Below the pieces are notes generated by a model. The model searched no databases and was not told the DNA's origin. It saw only the letters and a program-made list of their open reading frames with translations. A program made the position numbers and the translations under genes. Below, in pieces: positions 1-45,700 of a DNA stretch of 64,000 bases (position 1 is the stretch's first letter; each line of letters begins with the position of its first letter). The DNA comes from Nageia nagi. Taxonomy: Eukaryota; Plantae; Pinophyta. The DNA is taken from positions 187,860,001-187,924,000 of the forward strand of contig JBITNC010000001.1 in the NCBI GenBank assembly GCA_050084985.1, written 5' to 3'.

Positions 1-501
1 ATATTGGCTAAACCACATGCATTTTTGTTTGTCAAGCCTATACCTAGGTTTCATTGAGTTTTCTTGCTGAATCTGAGTTTCAGCATTAGTTCAAGATGAT
101 TAATGGTTAAGCTTCTAATTACCACCAGATACGGACATACACAACAAACTTTATTTCAAATTCTAATAGAAAATTTACACTCGAAAAGATGATATATATA
201 TCACTTGAAGAAAGATGTTATCCATATCCTTCACACACAACACTTCTAATTCCAATTAGATACTGCCTGAAGTTTTATTCAAACTCAAAGTCATGTCTCT
301 TCGATCTTCTCAGCAATCTTTTCAACACTAGAAATATTTCATTCATTATGTCTGAAAATCTAATTGGTAGTCATGTGTATCCAATTCTGAAATTTTCAAA
401 CTTGTCAATTCCATTCTTAAGACAATGTCGATGAAATGCTTTGATCTACATGGATATACCCTGTTTGAAAGATTATACAAAGGAATTGAGAGAATACAAA
501 C

Positions 502-735
502 CTCTATCGGATATCTACGGAAGGCAGGTTCAAAACGACTTTTGCAGAATGTGTGAAACCATATTGTAAGTATTGGCAGAGCAATAAGTGCAGGTGTCAG
601 CTGGGCCGCTGCTGTTGTACTCAGCAAGCCCAGCAGTAGAACCTGTGATATGACTAAGCCAGCAATTATACGAGAATGAACAAAGGGCCAAAACGCTGCT
701 GCACTTTCATATTCTTGGTTATATACATTAATTAC
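502..735 (-). CDS. OSCA1: OSCA1/CSC1 exon VINVYNQEYESAAAFWPFVH...RFEPAFRRYPIE
   Basis: Within ORF 346..846; tttcag acceptor, gtttgt donor, 234 nt. Confidence 0.95.
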
Positions 736-3700: not shown

Positions 3701-6700
3701 AGCCCATGATATAATAATCCTACCATTTAATAAAACCCTAGATAATTGATAGTAATAGAAGACCAAAATATGGTTGATAGTTTGATGTTCACCCCTAAAA
3801 ACTTGTCATTGATGAGACCATAAAAAGTGCCTAGTGGGTCTGAGACTCTCAATGTAGGCATTGAAATAATCTAAAAGAATGACAACACCCAAAGAGTGTC
3901 AATATCTCCAAGTAGAGATCCCAAGTCACCATCAGAGCATATGACAAACGAAGATGATGCAAGAGTAAAGTAGCAATATGACTATAAAGGTTTCACCAAG
4001 AGAAGGAAGGCCCCTCTGAATTCGAAACACAACCCAAATCATGAACACCGCTTGAAAAGGTCTGAATATATGTGTTTCAAGCCTAAAACTTGAGGCCTAA
4101 TGACAACCACTAACATGTGTGAGGGCTCATTCAAGGCCTTCATGTCTTTGCAAGGAAAAAAAATATTCAAAGGTATAATAGCATGGAATGTACCAAAAGA
4201 ATATTGTATTGCCACATTAAAATTCCAGTAGGCCAAGGACAAGACCACCTTGGAGGAGAGGAGACACAAATCACTGCTCACAATTATAGATCATTGCCCA
4301 CTTGTTATATGTTACTCAGCTATCTCTTGTGCACATGCCTTCTGTAGTTCATCCATCTTAAGTCGCATGAGATCTTCATCCAAACAGATTTCAATGGGGA
4401 GATTAAATAGTTTTGTCTTGGCTGTTAAAGGCCTCATATGTTCCTTGATTGACTGAAACTGAATGAAAAGAGTGCCACAAGGACAATATCCTCAAGATCC
4501 AATGTTTCATGCAAGAAATAACAATGAAAGGATCAAAAGGCTTTGGAAGACCTTGGCGTTGGGCCTGAAGGTTGAACCCTTTGGGGTGGTGTTCCCTTTC
4601 TTCAAGAAATTTTCATTTTTAACATTCCTGTGTTGGATAAGGGTCTATGATTGCTTGTGTTTTATGTTATAGTCATCCTCTTGGAAGCTGAAGATCATTT
4701 ATTTATTGGAGGTGTGTAGGGTCATTCTAGGGTCATGAAGCTGATTCTAAACCTGTGTTATTTTCACTCTAAGTTTAGCCCCAATAGAACTAAAAACCCT
4801 CTTCAGTGCATATGCCATTGTTAGCTAAGGATGCAAATGATCCATACAATGATTGGTAGACATGTTTCAAATGTTGTTTGTAATGTGCATGAGTAGCATA
4901 AATGTAGAAAGAAAGAAGGAAATTTTATTACTTTCTACTAGTAACCAAAGTAGACCAGAGGGACTTGAAAGGATGCAATCAGATAATGAAGTTGTGTGGG
5001 AACCCAAAAATGGCACTAAAAATTAGGCAAAATTTAATGTAAACAACATGTTTCAGGAACATCCAGCAGTCAAAACAGTTAAAAATAGAGTTGGGCCTAA
5101 CCAATGATGCAGTGACGTGTGGTAGAAAAAACAATATCATCATATAGCACTTCCTTGCATATACAGGGAAGATCCATATATCTACAATCTTGGTTATAAG
5201 AGTAAAATGTAACACAAACTTCTAACAATTGAGATTCTTAACAAGAAATATAGAGTCGACTTGAAATTAAGCAAAAGACTATTTTTGGGAAAAGATATGC
5301 AGTAGCCAAACTTAACATGAGACCACACTGCAGAAATTAGACCATGCACTAGGAAATTGATTTTTTTATTAGACTTCACCTCTTCACTATCATAGAATAG
5401 ATGCAAGAGTCTTTCTCAATGATCAATTCCAAGGTTAATTGGGTAATATGCAATATATGGGCTTTCTATGAATTCTATAGTTCATTTCTTCCTTACTAGA
5501 AAACAGAATATGCTAGTATACCATCAAATACAATATCAATTAAACATGTGTAAACAACATATACTACATAATAGCGTTAGAAACTGTTGTACCCGCACAA
5601 CACAACCCAAGATGCAACATTTTGGGGACCCTATTTTTGCAAAGGCCATTTGGCGATAGATAGTTCATTCTGAAGAGTGCAAACATGATATCAGGGAACG
5701 ATTTAAGGCGATCATGCAACGAAGACCCTAAAGAGTATCAGAGATTCCAGCCGCCAGATTTGTAGCCAAGGAGCCAGGATCTGATAGCTATTGACAGAGC
5801 ACGAATTTTTGGCTCTAGAATGAGATCAATAGAGATGGGGCCGTTTTGGTCAATTTTAAGCCCAAAAAGGTGAGCATGACCAAAAGGTGCGTTTTGGTCA
5901 GTTTTGAGCCTAGAAAGTTGGAAAATGGTCAGTTTCATGACAAAGTGCATTTTGGTCAATTTTGAGCCCAAAAGTGGTCAATATGGTAAAAATGTGCATT
6001 TTTGCACGGTTTGAGCTCGAAAAGCTCGAACATGACCAAAAGTGCAAAGTTGAGCTCAAAATGACCAGAAATGCTCAAAAATGCCAAAAATGATTGTTTT
6101 TTCCCAGAAATGTCGAAAATACACACTTTGAGCTCGAAAATAATCGAAAATGCAGAGTTTGAGCTTGGAAGTGTTGAAAAGTGCGTTTTGGTCAAGTTCA
6201 AGCTCGAAAAAGATAGAACTAACCCGGATGATAGGGAATTGATCATAGGTGTTCTGAAACAGCTGATACTACTGAAGGTGGTGGACAAAGGCTATTCACG
6301 GGATGCTGTGAGACAGTTCAATGTGCCAAACTATCTATTTCGAAGCTTTCAGGACTCCCAATTCTAGGGGATGGTGTTCCCAAACAGTGAGGATAGAGTT
6401 TTGTGACAAAGGGAGATGAAGAATACAATTTCAGAAATATTTGGGCTTGGAACTTTTCAGTTCCGACCGAAGGGGCTTCCTAGGGGTGAAATCAAGAGAT
6501 AAGTGTTTTGACTTCCAAGAAATGTGGAGTTGAGTTTAAGCCTAGAAAAATGAGTTTTTTCAAGTAAGTCAAAATGAAAATCTGAGAGAAAGGTGTGATG
6601 CCAAATGACAAATCAAGGCCACTTTGCTCTTGGAAATTTTGAAAAAACTCAAGTTTTGCCCTCCAAAAATCTAGGGGGGAGTTTTCTGACTTTTGGCCCT

Positions 6701-9700
6701 TTTCCATGAATCTTGAAAATGGCCTATTCTTCTCAAAACCTGCGCCTACCTTTTGGGAGGCCCAGATTGATTCAAAAGTGAAATTTTTGAGCTTGGGAGC
6801 ATGGAGATTGCAATTCTACATCAAATTGGTCTTTCAAGTTTTGCAATTTTGACAAGATTTGCTCCCTCAAAAGTGGGAAAAACAACAAAGTGAGCAAAGA
6901 GGAGAAAAGGACAGCCAAAAGAAATGCTTCAAATTTTCCAAAAATCCAAATTCTCAAAATGAAAATCTAACAGAAAGGTGTGATGCCAAATCCAATTTTA
7001 GGCACCTTTGCTCTCGGAATTTTCGGAAAAATACAAAAAATGCCCCCCAAAAAGCTAGGTGCAAGTTTGGCATGTTTTCCCTCACTTCTCCAAAATTTGA
7101 AAATGGCCTATTTCCTCCAAAACCAGTGCCTACCCTTCTTGCACACCAAATTTGCCAAAAATTGAAAATTTTGACCTTCATGAGGTGTAGGAAGGGATTT
7201 CACACAAGTTTGATGATTTGAGTTTTCCAAAAAAATGAGATTGTCTTTCAAAATCATCAAAAATTGATCAGCCAATGCGAGAGCTCCAATATTTTCCAAA
7301 GTTGGCCAAATCAAAAAAGAAGAAAGAGGTAGGGTGGCAAATCCAAAGATGAGCAACTTTGCTCTTGGAATTATTGAAAAAACTCAAGATTTGCACTCCA
7401 AAAAGTTAGGGAGGGATTTACCAAGTTTTGGACCTTTTCAAAACTTTCCCAAACATGCCCAAAACCTTGAAAACCTGCGCCAAGCTTGGGAGCACTCAAA
7501 ATTGGTCAAAAATCAAACTTTTTGATCATAGAAGCATGGGAAATCCACTTTTGCACAAGTTTGATGTTATAAGTTTTTTGAAAAAAGTGGATCTACTCCC
7601 TCAAAATCATGAAAAATGGATCAGCCAATGGGAGAGCTTGAAATTTTTTCCAAATTTTTCAAAATTGCCAAAATAAAAATTGGTAAGAAAGGTAGGGTGG
7701 CAAATCCAACGATGAGCAACTTTGCTATTGGAATTATTGAAAAAACTCAAGATTTGCCCTCCAAAAAGTTAGGGGGGGGATTTACCAAGTTTTGAACCTT
7801 TTCAAAACTTTCCCAAACATGCCCAAAACCTTGAAAACTTGTGCCTAGCATTATGGGGGCTTAAAATTTGTCAAAGGTGAAATTTTTTAGCTTCATGGGG
7901 TGCAAAATTCAATTTTACACCATTTTGGTCTTCCAAGTGCATGATTTGGACAAGAAAAACTCCTCCAATCATGGATTTGCCCTCGAAAATGGAGTAAATC
8001 ACAAAAAAGAAAAAAGAAAAAATAGAAAACTTCAAATGTTCAAAAGTTTGACTCAAGATCCAAAATTTTAGAAATCAATTTTGATGATTGATTTGAGTAC
8101 CCATTTCCCTTGTGTGGTTTGGATCCAAAAAAGTGAAGAAAAACACAAAAGATTCTCAAGATCCAAGATCTAAAGTATGAAAATCTTCAATTTTCCAAAA
8201 AAAAGAAAAAAAAAATTGGAGATCATGTGTAGAATAAGAATTCAAACACTTTGGCTTTTGAAATTTTTGAAAAAAGAGCAAAATTGTGCCAATTATGCCT
8301 AGGCGCTCATTTCCAAGTTTTCCAACCTTTGGCCTTTTTTCTCAACATTGGGTATGAGTAGAAAACTCCAAAAATGCAAAAACACCTTATGGAGCCTCCA
8401 AAATGCCCCGTCATGAAAAAGCTGCAAATCCTCTCAAAACTTCCCAAAAATCTTAAAATCTTGCCCTTCATCCATCCATGAGATCAAAACCACCTTTTAA
8501 AATTTTTCCAAATTTCAAACACCCCTCCCTCTTTTCCAAAAAATCCACTTTTTCGGAAAATTTTCTCGGAATTCCTTGAGAATTTGCCAAAATGACCACA
8601 TCAAAGGCAAATCTAGAATGAAAGAAAGAAGGAGCTCAAAAGATTGATGAACAGATCCAAAATGACGATTTGAAGCTCCAAAGTTTGCCAAATTGATGCA
8701 AACTGCCTCGAAATTCGTGCCAAAGGGCATCAATTTTTGTAAATATTTTATTTTAAGCAAATTTTAGTATTGTTCTCTCACTAAACAACATTGTAATCTC
8801 AATTTAGCATTCAAATTAGCATTTTTATGTTTTTTTTAAGAATTAGAGCAACACTTGAAATTTTGACCTAATTTGCCTATAAATAAGAGGCATGGGGTCT
8901 CATTTTCACCAAAGCTCATTTTGTGAAAGAAGTGAACTTTTGTAAAAGAGGAGCAAATTAATGTATCCTTGCACAACTCTTTCATAAGCTAATACCAAGT
9001 GGTTAAGGTAAAGATCGAGCTTGTTTATCCATTTGTGTTGTTGTGAATTGATTCTTAAGGATTATCATTGTTCGTTTGACACTTTCGCATTCTTCCTTTG
9101 AAAACTCGCAAGTTTTAGGGAAAGTATCATTTCTTTATTTTCCTAAAGTGTTGGAAACCAATCTTTGATAGTTTCTTGGTTCATAGCATGCATGTAGATG
9201 TTTACATCCAAACTAGAGGTTTACATCCAAACTCTTGTCCTTCCCATGTTCTTCCACCATGTCCATTTGATTGCATCGATCTTGCTTGTAGAGTATCGAC
9301 AATCAGTATTCCTTCCTGCTTCTCTTTGGAACAACTCGAAAATAGTTGTCTGTTCGCAAAGTTGGATGAATTGGATGAAATCCCTTAGATGAATTGGATG
9401 AAATCCCTTAGCTGATCCGAAAAAGGATGAACTTTTTAGACGATGCTTTATTGTGGTGATTAGTTTGGTTTTTGACCAAGTATCCGTTTCCGTTTCACAA
9501 GTGTAGTCTCTCACTTTATAGTATTTTACTTATTCTTTCTTTATGCTTTATTTATGCTTTCTTCATGCTTTCAAACCCAAATATAATCGTTAAGTCTCAC
9601 ACAAATATTTCGAATAAACTCTACATCAAATAAAAAACGTTGGTTAACAGACTGCTACCTCTCATTCAAAAAACAAAAGTTTGCATATCCTCCCTTCTTG

Positions 9701-18700: not shown

Positions 18701-21700
18701 CGGCCAAAAAGCGGCAAAAACCCCCTTATTCTTTAGATGTGATTTTTTCCACGTTTAATTGAAATTCACGATGAGGTGATTAATCGCTGATTTTTCTGAT
18801 TAATCATTTCTTTTTCGACCTATGTTCTAAGCGACCAATAAACGTTAGTGTGCAATGAAAACCATGCGGGGTGGATTAAACCTAGGATCAAGAAGGCCAA
18901 ATGAGATAGATGTACAAGTCCTAGGAAAAAATGAAAGACATTAATTGACTACGTTTTTTCAATTGATATTTGTAATGAACCTAGCAGTTTCAGTGGTGAT
19001 GCAAAAAAAAAGGAATGGAGAGATGCTATTCAAGGAGAATACAATAAAATCATAAAGAATCACATGTGCATATTGGTTGATTGTCCACTAGGTATGAAAG
19101 CCATTAGTGTCAAATGGGTTTACAGCACAAGTATAAGGAAAAATTTTATCTGGATAAGTATTAGGCATAGTTGGTCACGTAGGGTATTTTCTAAACAACG
19201 GAAAATATTATGAAAATACATTTACCCCATTGTAAAAGGGAACTGCAAAAAAGAGGTAGAACCTACATCAAATAGATATGAAGAGTACTTTCTCAGAAGG
19301 TGACCGGCAAAATAAGTACCTCAAGGTTTTGCAATCGGCAGCAAAGAACATGAGGTATCTCATTCAATGAAGACTTTATATGGTTTACAACGAGCACCTA
19401 AAGCATCATGCTGAATTGACAATTATCTTCACAAAATTACTTTCACATTCAATGACTCAAATGATATCTTATATGTGTTGATCATCTTTTAACAAGAGCA
19501 GAAAGAAGTTATTGGGATGAAAAATATTGGTCGAAACAAGATTAATAGGATTTTCATGTCAGAGCCCAAATAGATCATTTGACTTTTCAAAATATTTTAG
19601 ATATGCAAAAGTAAGCCTTCACTGAAATCTATGGAAGCCAATTTGAATCTTTGAAAAGATGATAAAGGACCATCGATAGATGCAACTAAATACAAACAAT
19701 CCATTAGTAGCGTAAGCTACTTGATGAGAACTAGAATAAATATTGTCTTTGCAGTATGTGTACTTTACCGGTTTATGCAGAAGCCTCAAGAAAGTAATGA
19801 GCTTGTAGAAAAATGAATTTTCAGGTATGTGGAGGGCACCAAAAGTTTTGGTCTAGAGTGTCTGAGAAATAACATATTCAAACTTGTTGATATTCAGATG
19901 CGAATTAGGGAAACAATATTGGTGATTTTCAAATGCAAATTATGAGATCAATATTGATGATAAAGTATCTACCACGATTTTAATCATGCATCCCCAGTCC
20001 AGAATTGTGGACCAGTTTTATTATGTATTTACAATTTCAAAATTGTTCCAACAAATATTTGCACAGATTGTCAAAGTAATATCAAGATACCAAATAATTC
20101 AGTATTTTTGCACAGAGACCAAACACATGGATGTAAAGTATCATTATATCAAGCTGTTGTTTCAAAGAAGGTAGTTGACCTGAGTATTGTCCAAAGAAAA
20201 TGTCTTCACCAAACATCATGATAGAATCAAGTTCAAGAAATTGTGAAGAATGTTTAGTATATGTTCAATATAAAGTTATAGACATTGTATTACAGGGAAG
20301 AAAGTTAATTTTTATAATTTGAAGTATAATTATATCAAGCTGTTGTTTCAAAGAAGGTGGTTGACCCGAGTATTGTCCAAAGAAAATGTCTTCACCAAAC
20401 ATCATGATAGAATCAAGTTCAAGAAATTGTGAAGAATGTTTAGTATATGTTCAATATAAAGTTATAGACATTGTATTACAGGGAAGAAACTTAATTTTTA
20501 TAATTCAATGTATAATCATTAAGGTTCTTGTTGGTAAATTAGTCTTCTGATTTTGCCAGAGTCAGATAGAATCTTTGCCCATTGTCCATTTTATAATCTG
20601 AATGAAAACTAAGATTGGTCAGCAATGTCATTTCCACTTCTAGAGTAGCTTGTTTTGAAGGCTATCATTGGGGGATTGCTATTTAGTGAAAGGTCAAATC
20701 ATTTGGACATTGTGAAAGGTGAGTCACTTGTGTTACCGACACCAACCTTCTAGGTGCTTATTTGGGCAATTGGCCTCCTATTTAAAGAAGCACCTAGTCC
20801 TTATAAGGGCATTGTTCATGTCATTTGTAATTACTCTCAATCTCATTTGTAGATATCGTTTATTTTATATTTCAGGTGTTACATATTTTCTTTTCTTTTT
20901 GTTTGCAATGTGGCAATGGATGGTGTGTGAGTTAAATTGTTAGTTGATTTTCGCATTGTCCTTTCATAAAGTTGAAATACTCTGATCTCATTTGGGCAAT
21001 TCGCCTCCTATTTAAAGAAGCACCTAGTCCTTATAGGGGCGGCGTTCATGTCATTTGTAATTACTCTCAATCTCATTTGTAGATATCATTTATTTTATAT
21101 TTCAGGTGTTACATATTTTCTTTTCTTTTTGTTTGCAATGTGGCAATGGATGGTGTGTGAGTTAAATTGTTAGTTGATTTTCGCATTGTCCTTTCATAAA
21201 GTTGAAATACTCTGATCTCCTCCTAAATTTATCTGCATTTTCTCAAAACAATTATTTGAATGCAACTGGAATAGGGGATCTATGAACATGAAACTCAAAA
21301 GGTATGAGAAAGATCTAGGGAAGCATGTTGCAAAGACAAAAGAATGAGACACTTACTCTGTTGCAGACTGATGGATAAATGTGTTAAGCTGCTCAAATGC
21401 TGTTCCAGTAATTATACTGCCAAGAAACACATTCACCAGAATAAAGTAATAATACTTCCTTGCTGAACTTCTCTCAAGCTCCGACAAGGACACATGACCT
21501 TCAATTTTGGACATGAACATCAAAATTGTTGGAAGAAAAATGAGGAAAAGCTTCAAGGCCAATCCTGGTAGAAATCCTACGATGAATGCCTTTATGACTT
21601 TCCTGCACACATGTTAGAAGGTTATGAAGTATTGCTTGAATGCAAGTAAAATATAGAAAACCCATAGTCATAAAGAAGTTTTACATATAAAAGAAAATAT

Positions 21701-24700
21701 CGGAAATAAGTGATTATAAGATAATAGATGGCTAGAAGGTTATGAATGACTTTATGACTTTCCTGCACACATGTTAGAAGGTCATGAAATTGTTGTGCCT
21801 GCACAACAACCCCAAAACTTTTGCATTTTTGAGGACCCTCATACAATTGAAAAGCAAGGCATGAAAATTTTCTAAGTCAAATGCATGAGTCTTGAAGCAA
21901 AATAAGGAGAAATGTGATAAAATTTGCATATTTTGATGAAAACAAGTCTAAAACAACCTTTTTTTCCTAGGCGCATGTTTTTGAGTGAGTGCTTTTGCAC
22001 TCACCAAAAACGGTGCGCTCAGCCTTACAATACACTTATCATGGTTCACTCCTGCATTTTTGGTGTTTAAATCTGCATTTTCATGTCTAAGTCTGCCCCC
22101 AATCATCGAAAACATGGCATTTTCCTCATTGCATATCATTCTGAGATCAGTTTGGTCATTTTTGAGAAATCTGGCAAGTTTTAGACTTGGGCGCATGGAT
22201 TTGGTATAGTGAAAAAGCACCCTCTTGAAAAGGTGCACCCAAGGGAATGAAGCACTTCCAACACTTAGCATTTTTTTGTGGTTTTTGAGAAAAAAGGTTT
22301 GAGCACTCACCTAAAATGGAGCACCCACCCATTTTTGTGCATAAATTTGGCTAAGTGTCAAAATTTTGGAACGTCCGCTATGAGCTAGACAAGTGTGTTA
22401 CCATGCATTGGGCCTTCATTTCCACCTACCATCATATGACATTTGTCCATATGGGAGCGCAAGCTATAAAAGGGGGGTCAACTTCATTTTGAATACATTT
22501 TGGTCAAATTGCTCTATCTTGTGTTGGGTTTAGCATGCATTAGAAAGAGGCACTCCTTAAAATTGGTGCACCCCATCCTGAAAGACATTTTTAAAGTCAT
22601 TTTTTCTGAAATTTCTTCATCTTGCTTTATTTAAAGGACCATGAAAATTGTGTGCATGTTTCTTGAGGAGTGAAAAAGCACACATATATTTTGGTGCGCC
22701 AACCTCTAGGATGTCCAGATCTAGGACCAAGCACATGTTTTCCAAGGAATGCAAAAGCACACATCTTTTTTAGTGCGCCTAGATTTTGGGAGAGTGATGC
22801 AAGTTATAATTTTGTAAATAATGTTTGACCTCAAGCGCAAGGATTTGGGGGAGTGCAAAAGCACTCATTAAAAACGGTGCACCCAAAATCAAAGGATCAA
22901 TTTTGAAAGGGAAATTTGGCTAAGTTTTAAGATAGTAAAAAACCTAAGCGTGTGGATTGTGAGAAGTGAAAAGGCACTCATCCTAAAAGGTGTCACCTTA
23001 TTTTAGCACATGTATTGGACCTCATTTCTAACCAACCAAAAGGTGACATGTGTAGGGTCCAAAACTATAAATAAAAAGTCATCCCTTGCATTTTTTTACT
23101 TTACTTCATTTAGTTTAAGGTTTCCAAATCGCACCATTTTCAGGCATTTCAAAAGGACTACCCAAAAATAGTGCGCCCTAGAGAAATAAGGGTTTTTGAA
23201 GGCATTTGATATCATTTTGAGCCATTCATTTTTAAGAAGAGGGTAAGCATGATCAAGGAAGACTTTTATTGAAAATTACTTAATTTTTCCTGCATAACTT
23301 GCCCTAATGCATGATTTTTGTATAATGCAAAAGGACTCATCTAAAACGGTGCGCCTAGGTCTGGAGTAAGGAAAATTGTCTGAGTATCCAAAGTCTCAAG
23401 TGCACTTCATACCCCTTTGTTCTTTCATGCACGATAATTGATAAAAATTTGATGCGCAAGAGTTTTGTGTAGTGAAAAGGGACTCATCTAAATTGGTGCA
23501 CCCTAATATGAAGTGATGATCTAGCCATTTAAAGTGAAATTTTTGTGTCCAAGCAAGGATAAAATTGACTAAGTGATGTGTTCCTCTAGTAGGTATCCAA
23601 GCACATGATTTCCAGGCAATGAAAAAGCACCTTTCCAGATTGGTGTGCCCCAGAAAACTTGACCTAAATTTGACTAAGTATTGAGGAGCCAGGAGTGAAA
23701 TATCAAACTTACAGGTGGCACCCAAGAAGTGCACTAAGCATCCACACTCCATGCAACCTCTAGAAAAGTGGATTTTCAATCCATTACTGTAGAACGTTTC
23801 AGTTTCCCTAGCTTGTAAATTTGTGTAATTCCTACTACTCCAACACACATCTAAAATAAATGCGCCTAGCATCATTTGACCTTTTCTGAGTCATTTTTAC
23901 CAGAATTTAGACCTTTTTCTTGTTCATATTTCACATTTTACATAATATACATAAATTTCTAGATGAGTTCCAGGACAACGTTTACCCCATCCAAGTCCAA
24001 GAAGCTTCAAAAATAGTTGTTTGAGAGACATGTAACAGAAGATCAGATGGAGAGGCTTCTTAGAGACGGCCAAATTGAATTTCAAGAGAGACAAAGACCA
24101 GAGCTCCTTGAAGCCAAATTTAAAGGGAGATTCACATTCGTCAGAGACACCGAATGGGGAAACATTGATCCTATCCAAACCATTGCATCCATCATTGACA
24201 TTAGCGAAGAAGACTTGCAAGACAAAATTATCCACTCATGTGGGTTGTTTAATGCTACTATGATGCCTTTTGTTGTTGCTTTTCCTGACTTGTGCTACGA
24301 GGTGGCCAAGTACTGTAGATTAGATAAGAGAATTCTTTTGGATACTGAAGGAAATTTGATCATGGACATCATTTCAGCAAGGATTGAAGCTGATTTCGGG
24401 TGAAGATATGGAGATGAGTATACTAAAGCCCAATCTACGGAGTTCCTTGACAGCACTATTAAGATAAGAGAATGATACCAAGACACTGTCAATATGATGA
24501 TTATCAAGGCATCCGAGACCAAAGGTTAGTTAGTGCTCGTAGAGAAGAATTCATCCCCACAATGTCCAAACTAATCACTCTACTATCTTGGGTCATAAGA
24601 CAAGAGAATGCTACCAAGTACAGGAAGGAGTTCACTAGATTCATCGCCATGATTAGCTTCAAGAGAGCTATACGATGGAGCAAAGTAATCAATGATGCCC

Positions 24701-27700
24701 TGCGCCACCAATTAACTTATTTGGGCTCCTCTAGAAAATTTTATATGAATTTGTACTTAGTATATTTATTATTACATGGTAAATGCATATCAAAAGCACA
24801 TGCAAATGAAAGGCAATTAGAGAAGAAAGGCACCCCAATGTGGAATATTTACCCTAGGTGGTGGTATCATAATAAATTCAGGCATTACTACATGAGGAAT
24901 GATGAGTGGGAGTATGCCATATATAAGGATATCAAAGGAGAAGCAATAGTAAAGAGGATTTTTGATGCAGTTGTTAAGGCTATTAGTGCACATGCAGATT
25001 TCTACTTGCAGTATACTAATCACACCTACATCAGAGTTTATGGCTTTGAAGAGCAACCCCTTCTCCTGCCCAAATATGCTAGCGATAGGCTAATCCTCAT
25101 GGAGTTTGCCAAGCAGTTGTTTTTTTTGAAGGAAAGGGTGTGGAGAAAGAAAGATGCAACAATTAACATGCCATCTCTATTTCAACTTATTTTTTTCAGA
25201 CTTGGGTTGAGGCCAAGAGTATGCGCAAAGAGCTACAACAATATGTCTTCTATAAGGAGGCAGCAGGCAAGAATTACGATCCTAGAGGTGTTATAGCCAA
25301 TTTTTATAACATTGCTTTCCCAAAGACCATATCATTCAAACACAAATATTTGGGAAATGTAGCAAAGTACAAAAACTTGACAGATGAAAATAAGATCAAG
25401 GAGATTGATGCTCTTTTGAGCAAAAACAAGACTCCTCTCAAGACTACAAGTAGAACAACTCAACCTGCAACTCAAGGGACTTGAAGTGTGAAAGAGAGAC
25501 CTAAAGAGGTCCCACTTAGGATCAGAACGTCCCCTCCTATTAGCAATGCACCACCTCCAGTAATGAAGTCTCCCTTGCTCCCTCTTGGGAAAAGACAAGG
25601 AACCATTAACCAACATGCTTCAATGGGTTCCAGCAAAAGCAAAGTAGAAGTTAATGCAGCCAAGACAAGTCAGCAGGTGGTTGATCTTAGGGATGCAAGC
25701 TACAAGGATGTCCCTTTGAGCAAACTTGAACAAGATGTTGTCTACCCTAAGGGTAGTTGTGCTGATGATTCCCCTTTTAGAAGGACCACTCCACATAGAT
25801 CCTCACACCTTTAAGGATGCAAAGAGAAGGTTCCCCCACTACAACCTAGTTCCATTTCATCTTCTTCTTTAGATGAAGAAGATATTGAAGAATCGAGATC
25901 CAAAGATGAAAAAGGCTCCCATGATGAAGAGAGCCATGATGAGGAAGATGATGATGGAGAGGAGAGCTATGATGATGATGCTGATTCTAACACCCATGAT
26001 GATGAGTACCCCATTCAAGAAGAGAACGTAGCCATAGGTGCTTCTACACCTAATGATACAGAAAATGACACCGTCCCACATGAAGATTTAATCGTTGATG
26101 AAGAAAATTGTAATGAAGTTGTCCATATTGTTGGAGTAGAGTGCGCCAAAGAGGTGAGCACTTCTAAGACTCCTGCAAACCACCCAAACAAGTCACCCCC
26201 ATCTTCCCAAAAGACCTTGTCTAAGAGGACTAGCCATGAGAGATCTCCCCAACCCCACAGGAAATTTCTATCATTAGGAGGAAGTGGTGGAGATGAAGAA
26301 GATGAAGGTAAGAAAGAAGAACATAAGAAGAGGATGCAGGATGAGCACCAGAACAAAGAAGTTGTCCTCATTCAAACTACTCTAACAAAAGAAGTCAACA
26401 AAAAGGTGAGAAAAAGTAGGATGTTGGTACAAAGGCTTCCTTTTAAAGCAACCACTGAACATCTTGAGGTTGACTTGGATGCCTACTTAAGAGCTTTGAG
26501 CATGAGCATGAGCATTGCTCATAATGAGGATATTGATCCCTATTTAAGGTTTGAAGATGAAGAAGAGCTCTCTGATGGTGAGAAAGTGAGAAGGGTCGAT
26601 ACTTATGTTTCCACAAACAGAAAGGAGATCTCTATCAACCATTGCTAATCCAAGGAGAAGCACCCTAAGGGACATGAAAAATTGTTTAATTGAGACTTTC
26701 AAGATACCACCAAACTATGCCTATCAGCAAGGAAGCACAATGTTTCACAAAATGCAACTGTAATGGAGCAAGAGGGCTACGAGGCCAAACAAGAGGTAAG
26801 GAGGTTGAAGAAGGAGCTCACTACAAGCAGGAAAACAATAAAAGAATTTCAGGCTATGAGTACAATCCCTGTTGAACTCAAAAGACAAACTTCATTTCAT
26901 CTAGGTTGGGAATTAATGAAGAATTCCCTAAAGAAGTAGATGATGGAGATCATTGAGAAGCTTGCTTCTCAAATTTATGGCCTTATCGAGGAAGGGATTG
27001 AGCTGAGTGAATTGAAAACCCAAATATCCTCCCTCCTTGAATAGTTGGATGGTCATCTCCCCATTGTTACCAACCTACAGCGAATATTTGTTGATAAGCA
27101 TGAGAAGTTGGTCTACCACCATGAATTCATGTACCAACACGACTAGTTCAAGCACAACTTGGACAAGAGTCAAGTGGTGTGCTTAAGGCCAGGTTGCCCC
27201 TGAAAAAGGATGTGGAAAAACAAATGTCTCAGTACATGTATCAATTGAAGTTTCAAGGGGAGAATGGTGATGTAAGTAAAAAGGAATCAATCTTGGTAGA
27301 GGCATATAATTTGATTCAAGAGCATCTTGAGGTCGAATACCTCAATCTTCCAAAAGCGGGCAAGCCCATTCATCACAAGAGGCATATGGTCTTCTGGAGA
27401 TTTCGGAAATAGGTTATATCCCAATAAATCGAGGGCTTTTATAGACAGAATGGCAACATCGTAGGCATACTCTTCAAGGGAGTACAGAAATCCTTGGCTT
27501 TCCTAGAGGAAACCATGGAATCATGCGGCCTCATCAATGAAGAGTGGAACTCCGCGAGTGCTAAATCAAATTTGCCCTAGATTTGATTCGCTTGCAGATT
27601 CTGTCTGCAACATTCTTTCAATTTTTAATGCATATTGTTATGGTTCTTAGACTTATAGTTAATTGATTTGACCAATACAGGGATGAATTTTTTCTCCCAC

Positions 27701-30700
27701 CATATCAAATATGTCAGAATTCATTTATTGCTTATCGGTGCACGAATCCGCTGGTTCATTGTCAGAATTTACTGCATATTTGATTTTATTATGCATTTTT
27801 TAGAGATAGATTAGATGTTTTGTTGGTTGTGGCATTAATGTTCTATCAGTTTTTGAATGCCACTTGCATAGATGTATGCAATTTAGTCTAATTTTGCATA
27901 GATATGTGTGTTGCGTGTGAGTATACCATATCGGATTTTATGCCTTTAGGGCAACGTTGCATTTATTGCAACTACTTTTTGTGACCTACATATATAACAT
28001 TTCGGTTATTTAGAAAGGGATTTTTGCAATTGAAAGAAAGGAATGCTCATGTTGTGTTGTTGAATATATTTTGCAAAGTGGATTTCTTTCTAGAATTGTG
28101 CTTTGAAGAATGTTGTGAATCTTTCATTCGTAGGATCATGCATCCTATCTTGTAAGAATTTTTTGCCAGTTTGAATAGTTTTTGTTGCTTAAGTGCATCC
28201 TCTTTGAAAACTAAGAGTTTTCAGAGGAGAAAGTTGATTATTTTGTGAAGTGGTTTAAATTATTCATTGCATGATTTGCACTTAAGTGTATGTATGGGTA
28301 GGGTACGCCCTTCTGGGCATGACATTGGCACTACAGTGCACAGTGGTGTCGTCAGGCGGAGGCTCCCATAGTCTCTCCGACGTGGCAACCAGTAAGACAT
28401 AGTCCAAATACGCCTATCTGTGCGGTGAAACATGGTCGTGCTCCTAAAGGCTTTTCACCGGGTGAGATCCCCGGATGTGGGCTAACACCCTAGGTACCCA
28501 GCACTCAACCTGAAGGGCAATCGTAATGGACAAATGTCCCCGTAGTAAGGGGAGGAATGAAAGGAGTGGTTGCCTAATAAACATCCATGAAACTCCAAGA
28601 ACCCTGGTAAACCCTAGAGCCTTTACAATGCTAGCTGAGGATAAATCGAGGATAAATGTATGTATTCCAAGGCAAAAAGCTTATCTCTATGTCATTCAAT
28701 TAGAACATATGTATTCACATGTTGGTCATTTCCCTTCATCTTCATTTCGATCGAGTCTTCCATCATAGACCCAACAGCTTCCTCCTATTGTCTAGTAGCA
28801 ACTTGAGCTTTGCTATTTACTACTAGGTTTGATAAGTGAATACAGATTTCTTAAGGAATCCTAGGATGACCTATCGAGACACTGCATCACTAGTGATTGT
28901 TTCATATGCTTATTTTCTCATTCCTATGCATCTATCCCTGCATTTGTGATCTTTCTTTGCTTTCATTCACATTTGTAGTCTTTTCTTGTTTTTAAGTTTA
29001 CAACTCATGAAAAAAGTCAGTCGATGAGCCTCGATTGTATACGGTTGAACAGTATGCATCTTTGACCATTGTGCGTGGGTCCATATTCCATGCGACTGCT
29101 TGGGGTACATAGTACTTTCAAGCGGAAACAAGTACCGTTGTTTCCTCCAAGTTTTATGGATGTTTTGGAAGGAAAGAAAAACATACCAACAGAAGTCTGG
29201 CTAGAATGCAAGTAAAATATAGAAAACCCATATTCCTAAAGAAGCTTTACATATAAAAGCAAATATCAGAAATAAGTGATTTATAAGGTAATAGATGGCA
29301 ATTAACCTGGAATCTAAGAAATTTCAGTTTTTCTTCACTTCTATTTTGAATGAGAAACTTATTTTATATAGCCATTTTAGAAAGTATATTGATCATCTTC
29401 ATATTATGAAGTGAAGCAAGCTCACAATGTAAAGCAAGCATGAAAGTGACAAATAAGGGAGATATGTTTCTTTAACAACACGTAACATACCAGCTCTTAG
29501 GTCTATATTTTTGAACATTTATGTAATATGAACCTACCGCATTTACAAAATGTTCTATACACAAAACCTTTGGGTCATAAAAAATCTTCATATCATGGGA
29601 ACAAAGAATGAAAATTGGCAAACAAAATTCACATTCAATAAGATATTCTAACTTGAAAGCACCATCACTTGAAAATTATATTCAAATGAGAAAAAACATG
29701 CATAAAATTGTAAAACAGAAGAAGCAAGACATAGAAAGAACATTCATAAAATATGTGAAGTATCTGATTTGACATGTTAGCTTACACTTCAATAACTGGT
29801 TTCAGGAAAGGAGCAACCTTCTCTATCCCTTCAATATTAGCTAAAGATTGCACAAATGCAATCGGTATCATGAAGAAGAAAACGAGGAAGAAAACAGCAG
29901 CAGCTATCACCAATCTCCGAACAGTTAGTTCAACAAATGGAATCGCTAGATTGTGCCAATATACATCTCTGGGCTCTGGGGCCCATTCAGTTAACCATAA
30001 CGTAGGATTCCTGCACTGCTGTGTTTGTGCACATACTGCTGCTCCCAAGCGTGACTTAAATGAAACAAATGCCACTGGCATAATAGATTTAGAGTCATTG
30101 AGCACCCTCTCTCTTTCTGCTGCTGCCTGCATTCTCATTCAAAAATAATATCAGAACATCAGCAAAACTATAGTGGTTTAAACTTTATGTCCTTCCCTCT
30201 CTCCAAAGAGACCATGTAATAAAACCTATTATATATCTTTCTGAAGGAAGATGTACACATATTGAAGGTTTTAATGACATGCAGAATTATTCTGAAAATT
30301 TAAGGATAAGAACTGGAAATCCATAGGAACTTTTAGGTTGTTTTTATACTAATAAGTAATAACAGGTGAAATATAAGCATCCGACTTTTAAAGACTATTC
30401 ACAAGGGTGTTCCTCAATGCTTAAGATGGATGTAAATTACAATCACACTACAGAGTACACGTGAAGATATTCCAAAAATAATGTGAGAATAGGAAAAAAG
30501 TACAGAAAGGAAAGGTGTTTTGCAAGTTGAAACCATTTACATAGCCATCAATACGGAACTAACTGTAAAACATAAATTTATCAGACTCAAAAATGACCCC
30601 AAAGTTCGAATTATCAAATCATTTTCATTTGTGACAATATATTTTCTTCAGATCATCCAGTTAACATCCAGTGTCCAAAGCAACCAAGACATGTTACCTA

Positions 30701-33700
30701 TATTTATAGGAAAGGTGCAGTGCCACTCTTATGAACACCGCATTAACATACTAATCATTTCCTTGAAAGGACAAGAGATGTGGCCCCGTGGCAAAAGTGA
30801 AATTGTTCTCATTAATTTATTGAACATTAAAACTCATGCCTTCAAGACAACTAATCAGAAAAAATTGTATTCAAATTATATGATCTGACAGTTGTTTAAG
30901 ATGAATTTATTGATTTTAGTTGGAATAAATTTATTACAGAAGCCTTCACTTACTAATTATATGCATTTGCTTGAATGACTTCCAATTTGATTAAGAGTGA
31001 AATATTCAGAATCTTATTTAATTCATATTCATTCTCAAAAACATCAAGTTTTTCTTGGGATTTCTCCAAAAGATATCTACTTACTTCTTCAGCGGATACA
31101 CCTTCTACATGATCAAATGTCTCCCAAGTGCTTTCTAGCTGCTCCACTATTATAAAGATTGATGGCACTCTTAGCATTTAAGATCAACTTGTTAGTTTAT
31201 CAAACCTTAAACATACTACAAGTGCAAAAAAAGGAATTTTTAGCAAGGAAGTAAGGCATTCAAAAACATTGCATAATATACAAGCAGCATAAGTTATACA
31301 ACAAAAATTATGACCAAAATTTGTTCGTGTGTTACAAAAGTTGCAGCACAACATCATATAGATAACAATATAAATAAGCAGAAGTTCACCAAGAAAATGA
31401 GAACCCATCATATCTGAATAACAAGGGTGAATAGCATTGGTTAGAAGACCCCTATCAAATACAACCAAGAAAAAAATGCAATCTGCCAAAAAAAAGAGTA
31501 TATAGGGCTAATGAATAAACATATGTTCATCAACACTAGTTAAGAATGCACTCTGGAGAGCGGTTAGATTGAGACTAGTCTATATAGCTATTGTTGCAAG
31601 AATGTTTTACAGATATATACTAGGTCCCCCAAGTAGAGATATAGATCTGTCCCAGTTCTAGTTGGTATAGGCATATGTTGTGGCTTCCAAAACACGGTCC
31701 AAATTTTTAGCAAATTTGGGAACCCACAAATTTTGGCAATAAGAAGTCGACCGAGCTGATGATGTCTTGAGATCAAGAGGCATTAGAGAACAAAAATGGT
31801 AGAAATGAACAAATTGAACTTCTAGTAGCAGCAGACAAATTTTCGCTAAATCCCATTCAAGAGTATCCTCTCGAGGAGACAACATCCATGTCCTCTCCAA
31901 GATTTGCGCTAGCCTTCCAAGGACCTCAAATGACCAATGTAGACGATCAAAGAAGCAAAATTGGCTAAGTACCACGCATGGCAACATCTCAGAACCTAGG
32001 CACAAATGTCAAAGGAGACAAGGTTCTTGACTCACTTTGGATCTCCCCAAGTCAATCTCCTCCTCCAAGTGCAAATCCAAACTAAGACAAGGGTGGTGAC
32101 CTCTAGAAGACTTGCGCCAGCACTCCAGACTCTCCAAAAGTAATTTCAGGCGACAAAGAAAAACTTTGGCTAAGTTTGGAGCATTTTCTCCCAAGAGACC
32201 TACACCAAGCTCAAATGCACTATTTCCGATGCACATGCAAGTCAAAACACACATGATGACATCTTCTGGACCTATGTTGGGCTGGCATTCTTTCATTCAA
32301 GCGCAAGTGTCAGATTAGACAAAGCACCATGACCCTCCTTGGACTGCGTCACACCTCCTTCCTTCTTGGCGTAGATCACAATAGAGATAATCGAGTTCAT
32401 GAGTTGACCTTCAAGGGCTTGCATTGGCCTCCTAGGCACTTACCTTAGCGCATACCCACGTCTAGACAACCTCCTTGACTCTCTCCACACTTGCATTGGG
32501 CTCAGACTCTACATCTTTGGTGCAAGTACAACAAGAGACAACCTCCTCGTCCCTCCCTAAGGATGTGCCTATTTCCTAAGATTATCCAACCTCAGGCTTT
32601 GTGCTAGATTCCCTAGAAAATAGATCTCATCTTTGAAGGCACAAATCCCTAAGCCTCCAAAGGATTTTTCCCTAGGAAAACCCTAACGATGTCTATAAAA
32701 AGGGGAAGTTGGCCTTCATTTCTACATGATAAGATTGTTCTCTCCTTTCGAATTCACTAGGGCATCAAGATAGAAACTCCTTGGGATCCTTCTAAAGCTT
32801 GGGATCCTTCTAAATAGAGTCAAGGAAACCTCTCCTCTCCATTTGCAAAGGCATTCAAGACATTATCCAACATCAAGCATCAAATGGCAGAGACAAACTC
32901 TAAGGAGCTGGAGAACGAGGTTAAGCCAAAGAAGCTAATGACTACCAAGGGTGCTTCGTTGAGGAAGAAATTCAGTTTTGATCTTGCAACTTCAATAAGA
33001 GCACTACCCGAAAACCCCAGCCAGAAGATGAAAGATGAGTCCACGGAGACTCACTACGTGAGCAGATTTGTTTTCAAGTTCAATAATATGTTGTCCATCA
33101 CCAAAGTCACCCTGAACAAGGACCCAAAGAAATCTCAAGACTTGGATGCTCATACATTGAAGACTGAAGTTGGTGAAGTTGGGACCAATGGAGCAGAGCG
33201 GATCAAAGACATCACAAGGCTTGCCAAGGAATTGGAAAGCTAAAGGAAGTCGAACCCTGAAGAGGAGGATACACTTCCTAAGCCCCATCGTCCTCAAGAA
33301 GGGATGACCACTCAAGGACAAGAGTCTCCTGAACTAGCAAATGATGAAAACCAAAGGTCAAGTGTTGCAGAGCAAGGAGTAGCAGATGAACTCGTGGATG
33401 CCAATTGATGGAAGTTGTTGCATCTTGGATGCAATGTTTTAATTTTATTTTATTTTATGCATAATTTAGTTATTTCGGATTTCAAACTTTATACATATCT
33501 ATTAAAGCTTTGTGACGGCTAAGGATTTGCTCCCACAAGTGCTAGACTCAATTTGGTGGTGCCATGTGGCATATTTTCATTGGATCATTGATATTTAGGG
33601 TTATTTTAAGCAAATTTGAATTAGACTTAGGGAAACACTTAGGGTTGCCATACAAACACTATAGGTAGCCCTAGAGGGCTCATTTGTTAAGGGATAGAAT

Positions 33701-36700
33701 TTTGGATTTTGGACATGGACATTTGCAATTAGATGAGCAGAGTAATTTGTTCTATCAAACATATGTCTATTGTGAATGCGGCTTGATCTTTTGAATGAAA
33801 TTGAACAACTCCATTTTTACATGACTATGAGCTTTGACATGTAATGTTATCATTGTTGTGTTTTACTTAGACACTTGGAACTTTTTACGTGATTATTCTT
33901 TTGAAGTGTTGAATGTAACGCATAGTTAGTGATTGCCCATGGTACACAACTAAACTTGTGTAATTCTGAAGTGTGTTCTCCTATGAAGTTTAGCATGAGA
34001 ACTTCATTCGCATGTTGATAGTGTCATCCTTGTCATGATCAATACCCCTTTCCCCTTAGACGCTTGCTTCCTCAACTAGACAATTCGTGAGTGTGAGGAT
34101 ATTCCTTCTTCTAGACCATTCACTTTGTTGGCCAGTGTGAAAGGATAGGTGGATGCATGGAACTCATAACAAACCTGGAAGAACTTGGCATTCAAACATT
34201 GTACTCGTCGGTGGAGCTTGATGTAAGAGGGCTGAATTCATATGCCTCAAGCCATCTCCAATCTTCCTTCCTATTTTTCTTTCATTTTTCACTTTCTTTG
34301 TGCAGCTTCTACAACCATTTTTCAGTTTTTGTTCAAGAAACAACCCTTGCAAAGATACTAGACGATCTGAATCCTTGATCAAACAAATCTTATTTAAGGT
34401 TGGTAACAACTTCAAACATCTTAACCACTCTTTGAGCACATCCTGCCTATTCATTAGAGAGATACCTTTGAGGTAACCGGTCCTCATAGCGGAGGAGTGT
34501 AACGCCTTCTCACCTAAGGTGTTGGATTTCTTCTTAGCCTTGCCACTTAGAAGCCCATCAACAAGGAAGGAAAGAAAAACTACCCAACAGGATACTCATA
34601 AGAAAGACAAGTCTAATAAGAAATGGTGAAATGTTGCCAAGATATAAATAGAAATACATTTATAAATATGCATATACAGAGATAATTAGAAAGAAGGGTA
34701 AGAGAAAATATATACGATCATGCATGATATGTTCCAAAGGTTGCGAAGATCACCTATCCAAACCAGAAAAAGCACCAACATAAGAAAAATAAATTCAAAT
34801 TTCATCTCATGAAGATCTTGAACCACTGCAAGTAAGACCTCCCTAGTATGAAGCTTTTAGTCTCCAAAAACCTCCTTGAATAGTCAAGTAAGTGTATTGC
34901 TCCTGCATTAAACTAATGCATATTGTCTCTCTTTGTTGATGTACAATGAAATAGACCAAATGCAAATACACAATCACTTTAAGACATAATAGGAATAGGA
35001 CTGATTTTTTTGTCTTTCATACTTGCTTTTTGTTGAATATAGATGGCAATCACACACAACACTCCACAACAATAGAACACTACAACTTGTATAAGCAAAG
35101 GCACAATCAAAGTATGCTAAACAGATCTCTCATTAAACTTGAGAACACACAAATATCGCTTACACAATAAGACACATCACTGCAGGACCTTGGCTATATG
35201 CAAACAGCTTCAAATCTGGTTGTATAAGGATATTGTGTCTTCTAACAATTGGTCCAAGCCCTAACTCACAGTCCCTTTATTTTTAAGTGCAAATGGGTGT
35301 CCAAAACATTGAATCTTGAAACATGCAATCACAAATATAGACCTTGAATAGATCTGTCCTCAAATGAGTAAATAGTCTTCAGATCTCTCCTCCAACCTCC
35401 ATTAGATTAGATCTAATAGAAACCCCTCTAAAAAATCCTTAGCAAAATACTAAGGTCCAAGAGCATGCAAGCTCTCCAAGTTCTCTACCAAAATCAGCCC
35501 CCACCAAATGACCAGCTCTTCCTCTTATATAGCCTTGGAAGTCTTAATTTAAACCTCCTTGCCTCATAATAGTTACAAATCCTCTCCTATGGCAGTTACA
35601 AAAGCATTAAATAATACCTTGAACTTTGACCTCATAACATTTACTTTTGCCAAAATGGCAGTTACAAATAGTAGAGACATTTAATACTGCCTTATCATCT
35701 CAACCATCAAACTAAAAACGTGGACCAAGTCATTGACATTAATTAATACATTTTTTCTTGTCCCAAAACTATTCTAAATACATAACCAACTCCCTAAACA
35801 CTTATACTAACAATAAAACATCTCAAAACACCTAACCCACCCCTTAGAAGCCCAGAAACACAACAAAACATAACTTAAAATATTTTGGGACATTACATAC
35901 AACCACACATCTCTACACCTAAATCTCATAGGTTGTCTTATGCTCATAATGACAAACCTATATTTCAAGTGAAAACTCTTAGATTTTTCCTCATCATCTA
36001 GTATCAACAAAATTTTATAAATAACGTAAGTGACACTAACTCTTCTTCTCAACATCCTATCAAAACATGCTTGTAGAAGGGATGCATAACAAACTTTCAA
36101 TCAATCCACAAGACCTAACATTGACAATTTGGACCTGGTCAAGCCTGAAATGGAAGATAAGAGGATCAATCGAGATTACTCCTCCCAAAGGATTTTCTTC
36201 TCTTAAAATTCAAATATGAATTTGACATGGAAAAATTTCTCCACCGAGGACCCTGATTTTTTGGAAAGAAAGGTCTCTATTCGAGGAAAAGGAAAATGTA
36301 TCGATCACTCTTATCTCCAAAACTCCCCATTGAATTCTGAAACAGAAACATAATCGCAAGAATTGCAAAATCCATAGGAACCTCAATAGTTGTGGATTCC
36401 ATCACTATAAATAAACCTCAACTTTTAGCAACCAAATTCTATGTCAATGTAGACCTCACCAAAGATCTATCATGGAAAATCATTTTGAAAACCTTAGATG
36501 GAGATCGTGAGTAGAAAATTGAATATGAACATTTAATCCCAAGATGCAACATATGTAAGATAATTGGACATGCAATTCGAGATTGCCCAAATAAGCCAAA
36601 ATATCTTCCCAAAGCAACAACAAGAAGAGCTAGCCATACTCAACAAACAAACCAACAATTAAGCCAAAATATCTCCCCAAAGCAACCACAAACCATACTC

Positions 36701-42700: not shown

Positions 42701-45700
42701 AACCAATTTTGATTAGAATTCCTCTTCTTTCTTTCTTTTCCTAGTCGTTCATTCATTATCATTTTGTCTTCAGGAACATCTTCATCCAAATCTGATTTCA
42801 TTTTATCATTGTCTTGTTTTTCTTCAAGCTTGCTTTCTTCATTGATTGCAGGTAGCCATGTGGGTGAAGAACAAGCATGGGAGCTTTCCCTTCCTTGATC
42901 ACATGTGGCAACATGAATTGTTGGTGGTGTTTCTTTTCTCTTCACATTTATTGCCGCTCCAATTCCCATTTACCTTCTTCCCCAAAATCTCTAAAAATAG
43001 TTGAAAAGAAACACCCTTCTTGAATTTTTTGGATCTACCTTGATACTCCAGATAAAGGGCCTCCATCTCCTCCTCCTCACTCCTCAAATCCATCATAGAA
43101 ACCCTAGCCAAATTCTCTCCTTGGGTTGTTTTCATGCAGAGCAATTGCTCCAAACGATTATTCATTCAATCCTATCCTTTTTGAATACCCTTCATTGTGT
43201 CTTCAAATGCTTTGGCTCTTCTTTCATCGCTTGAGAGAGGATTTTTCAGATTTTTCTTGCTTCTTATGTCAATCCATGTTTTCAACTATATGGATGAGTA
43301 TTTGGCCGCATCAAATTCTCCTCATAGGTTGGTAAGATCTTGGCTTTGATACCACTGTAATGATCTAAACTAGGAAAAAGCATGAATTATTCTCTTAAAT
43401 TTCAGATTTTCCAACTGATGCCGTAGTTACCAAGTTCATTCACCAAGCCGCTTCAAGTTCATACAACTTCATGAATCAACATTTCAGATTTAAACAAATT
43501 ATGCCCTAATTTCAGATCTGAAAAAAGTACTGAAAATGGAGCACATATGCCACAAAAATCAGAATTGAGTATCAATCAATTTCATCCACCATAACAAACA
43601 AGTATAAATATCAAATGAGCAAGTAGTGCACCCTAGAAAGTGGACGAACCATGCTGAAACAAGTGTATGAAGATACTCAAAAATATATCCTTGGCTCTCC
43701 AGGGCTAGGCAAACCACTTGGAACACTAAAGAAGGGTGCAAGATGCACCACAATGCCTCCTAAACATGGGTGCTCCACTCCAAGACTCCTCAAATGCGCA
43801 ATCTCGAATGTTGAAGTATTATTGAAGCTCTAGATGAATCCTCGAATGAATGACCTAGGGGTTTTCATCCCTAATCCCTCCAAAACCAAGGGGTTTTTCC
43901 TCAAAGAAGAAGATGATTTGATCTTGAATGATGCCTTTTCCAACTGGGCGCCTCTTCCTTAAATACATGAAAATGCACAACATCATGACATGGCTGACCT
44001 CCTTGGGACTAAAAAATATCATCATTATGGCTGAACTGCTCCTTGGATAATAAATGATAAATGACATTATCCTAGCCTACCTGCTCATTACAATCCTACA
44101 TTGAAATCATAAAAAACACCTCCATGTTGGGTGTCCAATCTTGGGACTACAAATTACGCATTATTACATCAAAAGACATATGACAATATGAAAAATATCT
44201 CAAAAGGCCTATTACGATGCCAAAAGTATCAAAAAACACTCCTATGTACTAAAAATCATAATGCAAAATTTAGTGAGACGCCATAAATGGGGTCACTACA
44301 TTGGGCTTGGGCCACTTCATCATGGCAACATCAATCTCTCCTCCAACCACATGCCCAAGGTAGCTGAAGGATTGCTTGGCAAACTTATTTTTCATATTTC
44401 AACAAATTTCTTCAAAGCTATTAAAACAACCCTTAGACAATGAACATGTTGCCATCTTTTGCTAAAAACCAAGATTTCATCCAAGGATGCCACAAAATCG
44501 TCCAAATATTGACATGATTCAGTAGCCTCATGATAGTGGCTAGTGCAAAGCATAGACGAAATGGTGTTATCAATCATTCATAAAAGCATTGTCTTAATGG
44601 CTATCTTCAAAATGTTAGACACCTAATCCTTGGAGATTATCGTATTTGTAATAGAGTAGTAATATTTAGTAAATATAGTAAATTTGCATGTAGGAGATTA
44701 GTGGAATATTAGAAGTCATAAGGAAGTGCATATGAAGAGTCCATGTGTAATTCAAAGGTAACCCATGAAGGTGAATCCATAAAGTCACTTTGAGATTGTA
44801 TTTATTCTCATCTTGAATCTAATACAATGTTTTTTGCTTGGAGTTAATGGATAAATTCACAACGATTAGAGCTTGTGTTGGAAGACCAAGAATTCTTGAA
44901 GACTAGGAACAATTGATGACCAAGAACTCTTGAAGACCAAGATGTATTGAAGACCAAGAACTCTATTAACTCCATGAATGAAACAAAACTCTACCAATCT
45001 TTTTCCAGAAATCTTTGCTTCTTGTTTTTTCAAACTTTGTATCTTCAAATCAAATTCTGAGACCATATTGTGATACCCATTTTCAAGCTGCTCATTTTGG
45101 TATATTTGATCACATGTTTTAGAGCTTGTATATTCGAAAGAATTGGGCAATATAATGCTTGCCTTTAGTTGTATTAGACATATCAGCCTTGTTTGTTAGA
45201 TTGATAGGAGTCCTTTTTTTTCGAGGAGAATAAATATTAGGTCGAATTTTTTTCTTGCATGTAGGGTTTACGGTGCAATTTTTTTTCCTCTCATTAGTCC
45301 ACCTATTTTGGCTTTAGGGTTTCTTTGAATTGTGTTTGCTTGTTAAAGATTTGCCTAACACCCAAGAAACACCTCGGTACCACTATGCCTATGTGGTGGA
45401 GCCTGTGTTTGAGGTTGTAGACCCTATGTGGACGATCCGTGTTTGACTTCGTAGACCCTGTTGGGATGCTTTTCTTTCCCACGCGGGACACTCTGAATAT
45501 CGCGGGCGGAACTTATGAGATCCCAAGCAATATAGTTGGAAATGCATTACCAATTCCCCCGTTTGAAAAGGACTGTGTACCTCCAAGGCTCTTGTTGAAA
45601 CACCCTGCCAGTGACCCCAACGTTGTGACATTGTAAGGTTTGTTCGCCCAATGTGTTTTCTGAATAGGGATAGAAATAGAAATAAAGTACGGTATTCCTC

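Follow-up and report, generated by a model that had tools for sequence, protein, structure and literature searches.

A 7.4-kb LTR-like element carrying a decayed accessory gene of predicted PMD/VANC fold and an array of inverted motifs: a candidate solo LTR

VANDAL elements of Arabidopsis are Mutator-like (MULE) DNA transposons whose accessory gene, VANC (VANC21, PDB 9lnk), encodes a protein with a coiled coil, and short motifs are amplified as repeats in their non-coding DNA (PMC5735166); the accessible part of a further source describes VANC as dicot-specific (PMC13547354). In OTA Gypsy retrotransposons (TatIII, Ogre), including those of gymnosperms, extra open reading frames (eORFs) encode PMD-like domains (PMD-A) with a coiled coil, in elements with 5-bp target-site duplications (TSDs), and the known eORFs are internal, preceding gag or lying after pol and ahead of the 3' long terminal repeat (LTR) (PMC4408406, PMC6317226, PMC5418596). 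Additional ORFs of plant elements are all placed in the internal region in the accessible text of a further account (PMC7264820). Ogre and other non-chromoviruses also have long LTRs with TG...CA ends and repeat arrays, sized at 1.9-6.5 kb (PMC6431247) or up to ~5 kb (PMC6317226) and presented as non-coding in the same portions of these papers. Finally, the PMD-C proteins MAIN, MAIL1 and MAIL2, encoded by immobile host genes, are associated with short DNA motifs at gene promoters, one of them palindromic, and oppose silencing (10.1101/2024.09.27.615353). The window analyzed here, the whole 64,000-nucleotide stretch of contig JBITNC010000001.1, contains an element, E1 (21791..29191, plus strand; 7,401 bp), that resembles each of these systems in part. 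We tentatively propose, at slightly less than an even chance, that E1 is the solo remnant of a ~7.3 kb Gypsy-type LTR bearing a gene of PMD/VANC fold whose product would bind the element's own inverted motifs (dyads) against silencing.

Like VANDAL elements, E1 carries an accessory gene with a similar predicted fold and a likely coiled coil, together with short motifs repeated in its non-coding DNA; unlike them, it has LTR-type ends and TSD and a likely conifer host, the two arms of its motif are inverted and separated by 40 bp, and the protein of its family is only 9% identical to VANC21. With the eORFs it shares a predicted PMD-like domain, a likely coiled coil, a retrotransposon context and a 5-bp TSD, but the ORFs of E1 and of its relative E2 each sit inside an unpaired unit, flanked by its two ends. 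Like long LTRs, E1 and E2 are large and have TG...CA ends and repeat arrays, whereas at 7.2-7.4 kb they exceed the described ones and are protein-coding. With MAIN, MAIL1 and MAIL2 the resemblance would lie in the predicted fold family, the association with DNA motifs and the opposition to silencing.

The limits of E1 are well supported. It begins with TGTTG at 21791 and ends with CAACA at 29191, as an initial annotation of this DNA had stated, and it splits the second copy of a host duplication whose unsplit copy lies upstream (21582..21732, plus strand); when E1 is removed, the joined flanks equal this upstream unit at 140/151 positions, which confirms the boundaries proposed earlier. The 5-bp TSD exists but is imperfect, with GAAAT on the left (21786..21790) and GAAGT on the right (29192..29196, both plus strand); the upstream copy of the duplication reads GAAGT at the matching site. 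Because nine chance TGTTG..CAACA pairs with a perfect TSD occur in the window, this signature is insufficient alone. In contigs of two 5-Gb runs (X3 and X4, about half of each scanned), which cover E1 over its whole length, summed depth, which is not a copy number, was 128-5,068 in bins wholly inside E1 and 0-7 in two bins wholly outside. Loose contig ends fall exactly at 21791 in four contigs of run X1, the only four that show the 5' junction, and exactly at 29191 in 14 contigs of X3 and 14 of X4. A contig of run X5, which bears another organism label, crosses the right junction (29156-29235) with three differences, and the insertion may thus be shared between species. Near-identical low-depth pieces in X1 and X2 may be intron RNA or DNA; no run is recorded as RNA.

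No terminal direct repeat was found in E1 (local score of 16 between the 1,200 bp at either end, compared with a mean of 13.4 and a maximum of 20 in shuffles). Hidden short LTRs, which had been named beforehand as evidence against the element's LTR-like nature, were looked for and not found, and the two terminal direct repeats expected of a large retrotransposon derivative (LARD) or other internally deleted LTR element are absent. The statement that E1 has no internal direct repeat holds for its ends only, as the 5' 2 kb carries seven copies of a ~52-bp dispersed repeat family, D1. The absence of gag and pol was borne out: none of 69 stop-free six-frame pieces of at least 45 aa from E1, and 0/108 from E1 and E2, matched a Pfam family at E<=0.001, whereas two of three control pieces from a Copia remnant did. 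There was likewise no Pfam match to a transposase in E1. A comparison with 11 primer-binding site (PBS) motifs, which is not a full tRNA scan, gave none near the 5' end of E1, the matches lying inside the ORF only.

E1 belongs to a multi-copy family with one common order of parts, from a 5' motif array through a TATA motif, the ORF and a further TATA motif to a tail of ~1.1 kb. This architecture is a family trait, since a diverged second full copy, E2 (45459..52701, minus strand; 7,243 bp), has the same one, with a perfect GGGTC TSD, a homologous ORF (49970-46737) and TATA motifs at 50725 and 46537. E2 has the same 5' hairpin end as E1, an 18-bp self-complementary terminus (21791..21808 in E1, plus strand) also common to E3, and a similar 3' end. 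It lies within a short tandem repeat, and its boundaries are supported because this repeat continues on both sides (45390-45458 and 52702-52725). The E1 and E2 ORFs are homologous at both ends, at 36-51% identity at one and at 28% over 65 aa (E 1e-7) in the C-terminal domain (27182..27580, plus strand, in E1); apart from the initial 49 bp and one short acidic segment, the remaining DNA of the two elements cannot be aligned. E3 (5585..9668, plus strand) is an ORF-less relative of E2 in which the 5' and 3' regions are joined and the 3' end is missing. E4 (31676..34589, plus strand; 2,914 bp) has similar termini and a TATA motif at 32693, behind which a short ORF (32884-33410, plus strand; ~170 codons, one stop) resembles neither the ORF of E1 and E2 nor any Pfam family. 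TG...CA termini are present in E1, E2 and E4, the TSD matching at 5/5 positions in E2 and 4/5 in E1 and E4.

Outside the window, the longest related locus recovered is L001, a 5.7-kb metagenome contig colinear with E2 that holds 758 open codons. It was the one locus found in a scan of metagenome contigs; none was found in viral contigs (four single-protein queries) or in genome contigs, and 84 distant fragments were present among 1.84 billion representatives. A terminus-pattern match in viral contigs (L002) lies inside a phage gene without similarity to the window and was rejected as chance. Three sequences were left out of the alignments, P0032 because it repeats a fragment in tandem, P0016 and P0029 because they are frameshifted. 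Between E2 and L001, the nonsynonymous rate (dN) is 0.066 and the synonymous rate (dS) 0.56, a ratio of 0.12 (0.08-0.16) over 521 codons, which indicates that the ORF is an accessory gene under purifying selection.

The E1 copy of this gene is dead. Its ORF (23963..27580, plus strand) does span 1,206 codons, close to the ~1,200 aa first reported, but it is more heavily decayed than the "lightly" of that description, with 13 premature stops and three frameshifts. The reading frame of the ORF, followed over its four stretches, contains 4, 0, 7 and 3 stops (terminal included) compared with 7-81 in the other plus frames. A conserved N-terminal domain (24017..25175), modeled on the relative L001, is followed by an acidic low-complexity linker (25815..26645; 25% aspartate plus glutamate) and a charged helical stretch (26700..27140), all on the plus strand; the last is a likely coiled coil, with sub-threshold Pfam coiled-coil matches only. 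The structure model predicts a PMD/VANC-like fold for the N-terminal domain, and it is probable that the E1 protein is of this fold. Database searches gave no match to it: the element protein matched neither the PMD (PF10536) nor the DUF1985 (PF09331) profile of Pfam, a PDB sequence search found nothing, and Foldseek found nothing in PDB and BFVD, VANC21 being absent from its list on a second look. The sole named homologues are hypothetical proteins of Taxus chinensis, which makes a conifer the likely host, and a weak test found no homologue of 1,202-3,430 aa.

GCGCCTA-type words abound in the 5' regions (CGCCTA occurs 16 times in L001 against 0.3 expected) and are arranged there as inverted pairs whose arms stand 40 bp apart, eight in L001, seven in E1 (GCGC-core dyads, 21967..23652, no strand assigned) and two in E2. 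There are none in E3, E4 or the three ORFs, and one in 39,874 bp elsewhere. The spacing was picked after L001 had been viewed, and other spacings are equally common within the repeat unit of E1. As judged by alignment, the arm word and the 40-bp spacer recur across subfamilies whose flanking DNA no longer aligns, and the dyads are candidate binding sites for the element's protein. A self-targeted anti-silencing role for this protein, argued by analogy, seems to us evenly balanced between right and wrong. The LTR could be a giant coding one while its protein is a transcription activator, an integration tether or a particle helper and the dyads bind a host factor or position nucleosomes, an unlikely alternative. 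A common fold does not show function, and the PMD-A proteins of retrotransposons have no tested role in the accessible parts of their descriptions (PMC4408406, PMC5418596); E1 is moreover still CpG-depleted (observed/expected 0.24-0.28 in the 5' region and ORF). The dyads of L001 (455-1800) follow one another every 182-184 bp, with a last step of 192, a period of ~183 bp that is near the nucleosome repeat length. These points weigh against self-targeting. On the other side, the dyads occur in the three ORF-bearing copies and in neither ORF-less relative, and both characterized members of the fold family, VANC and MAIN/MAIL, act via DNA motifs against silencing in the accessible reports (PMC5735166, 10.1101/2024.09.27.615353).

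Two TATA boxes with initiator-like motifs, identified as motifs only, precede the ORF of E1 (22464..22488 and 23065..23092, plus strand). This pattern, which was written from these same elements, has eight matches in the window, seven of them inside elements and all in the sense of the ORF; E2 has one before its ORF and one 1,079 bp before its 3' end. Such a placement is consistent with a gene located in U3, with R-U5 behind it. The 3' non-coding region of E1 (27581..29191, plus strand), a putative R/U5, has a TATA-like motif at ~27990 and ends in GGAAAGAAAAACATACCAACA. It includes an optional module of ~380-430 bp (28296..28677, plus strand) that other family copies skip, with joints in X1, X2, X3 and X4; within 28252-28712 many copies skip such a length, and one module bin has the top depth inside E1 in X1. 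The module folds no better than shuffles (z 0.30), and an Rfam search gave one sub-threshold match, judged to be chance.

Neither a full-length relative of E1 nor a pol linked to the family was recovered. No PBS appears in the consensus of the contigs leaving the 3' end (14 in X3 and 14 in X4), a weak test in which assembly collapse can conceal a shared PBS junction. Consensus agreement was 0.44 in both runs (at least 14 contigs per run), and simulated agreement was 0.42 without shared sequence, 0.44 with 3/14 contigs sharing it and 0.50 with 5/14. Mostly intact elements are therefore unlikely, the observed value being that simulated for 3/14, and a solo-rich family is compatible with it. In the accessible data, solo-LTR rates are low in Pinaceae and do not correlate with LTR length (PMC5751070), and a solo ratio of 2.8:1 is given for Cupressus (10.64898/2026.07.23.736688). 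The missing PBS and the low Pinaceae rates count against a solo giant LTR, as do the 18-bp hairpin at the 5' end and the unpaired state of all the copies, including 3/3 complete units in 64 kb. All would suit a 7-kb unit that is itself the whole mobile element, never paired and LTR-less, with integrase-type ends, moved in trans and carrying its own accessory gene, the sizes of 2.9-7.4 kb being internal variants. We consider this improbable: inverted repetition of the termini does not extend past 5 bp, a promoter motif lying ~1.1 kb before the 3' end suits a U3-R-U5 order, and collapsed contigs may mask the PBS junction. To our knowledge there is no known route to an integrase substrate without a PBS, a polypurine tract (PPT) and paired LTRs.

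The unit might also derive from an LTR-eORF-LTR element with a TatIII/Ogre-like internal PMD ORF, the inner LTR halves having been lost to leave U3-R-ORF-R-U5. Gymnosperm Tat lineage III has such an internal eORF in the accessible description (PMC4408406), E3 is without the ORF block, and there is faint similarity between DNA before the ORF and near the downstream TATA motif (E2, 53 against a shuffle maximum of 45; E1, 54 against 50), the other 10/12 pairings being within the shuffle range. This origin is nevertheless improbable. A terminal repeat is lacking, the passage from the 5' region into the ORF is bridged by many contigs, and the layout is common to two subfamilies whose synonymous sites are saturated, an outcome that separate deletions would not produce; at most such a descent would explain how the giant LTR arose, and it would not describe the E1 copy alone. 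Altogether, E1 is somewhat more likely than not a solo LTR. The initial annotation, which had offered a family with ~7-kb coding LTRs or an LTR-less unit, is supported in part, for the selected accessory gene and the absence of hidden LTRs, while it overlooked the sister copies, the array of motifs and the probable nature of the protein.

As a solo LTR, E1 would have arisen in two events, the insertion of a complete LTR-internal-LTR element by integrase and then a recombination between its LTRs that left one of them. The ORF would lie within U3 and be read from the upstream promoter, the downstream promoter beginning the genomic RNA. ORFs inside the LTR are found in animal retroviruses (MMTV sag, the HIV nef overlap); these are far shorter than the E1 ORF and encode unrelated proteins. 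The protein may oligomerize via its coiled coil and bind both arms of a dyad, and binding, in the manner of VANC and MAIN/MAIL, would oppose DNA methylation or silencing by Polycomb. In a solo copy, promoter, gene and target sites would remain together.

The window corresponds to an OSCA/CSC1 channel gene (346-61079, minus strand; RSN1_7TM and PHM7_cyt matches) whose many-kb introns are filled with decayed repeats, and E1 sits in one of these introns. The exon at 21357-21602 is present without differences in 3-kb contigs from both X1 and X2. The host duplication split by E1 (21582-21788) overlaps the edge of this exon, so the splice acceptor is present twice. Elsewhere there are an unrelated LTR of ~950 bp (38351-44300, minus strand), behind which lie a Met-type PBS and internal DNA of ~280 bp, all in a block repeated 4.7 kb away at ~88% identity; the decayed Copia remnant (54600-56900, plus strand; gag_pre-integrs, RVT_2); and recent tandem duplications (186, 230 and 222 bp), each with two copies that are 95-97% identical (20135-21219 and 61238-61685).

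Neither a coding giant LTR nor a VANC-like conifer gene was found reported in the open literature; subscription journals and Repbase lay outside this search, which therefore cannot show that no such report exists. Eudicot MULE transposons are the only ones for which sequence-specific anti-silencing is described, and the PMD proteins of retrotransposons are without tested function. The E1 family unites within a single unit a candidate protein and a candidate target, a dyad conserved amid DNA that can no longer be aligned, and the question therefore reduces to a direct binding assay. On the broadest view, which we regard as unlikely though worth stating, a widespread conifer retrotransposon lineage would have the largest and first protein-coding LTRs of plants, self-contained anti-silencing cassettes, each uniting a promoter, a VANC-like gene and a dyad array as its target, that survive solo and can keep cognate elements active in trans. 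A coding 7-kb LTR, if true, would have been overlooked or mislabeled by standard LTR finders. Solo-LTR formation, if true, would leave the accessory gene behind rather than remove it, which bears on repeat retention in conifer giga-genomes.
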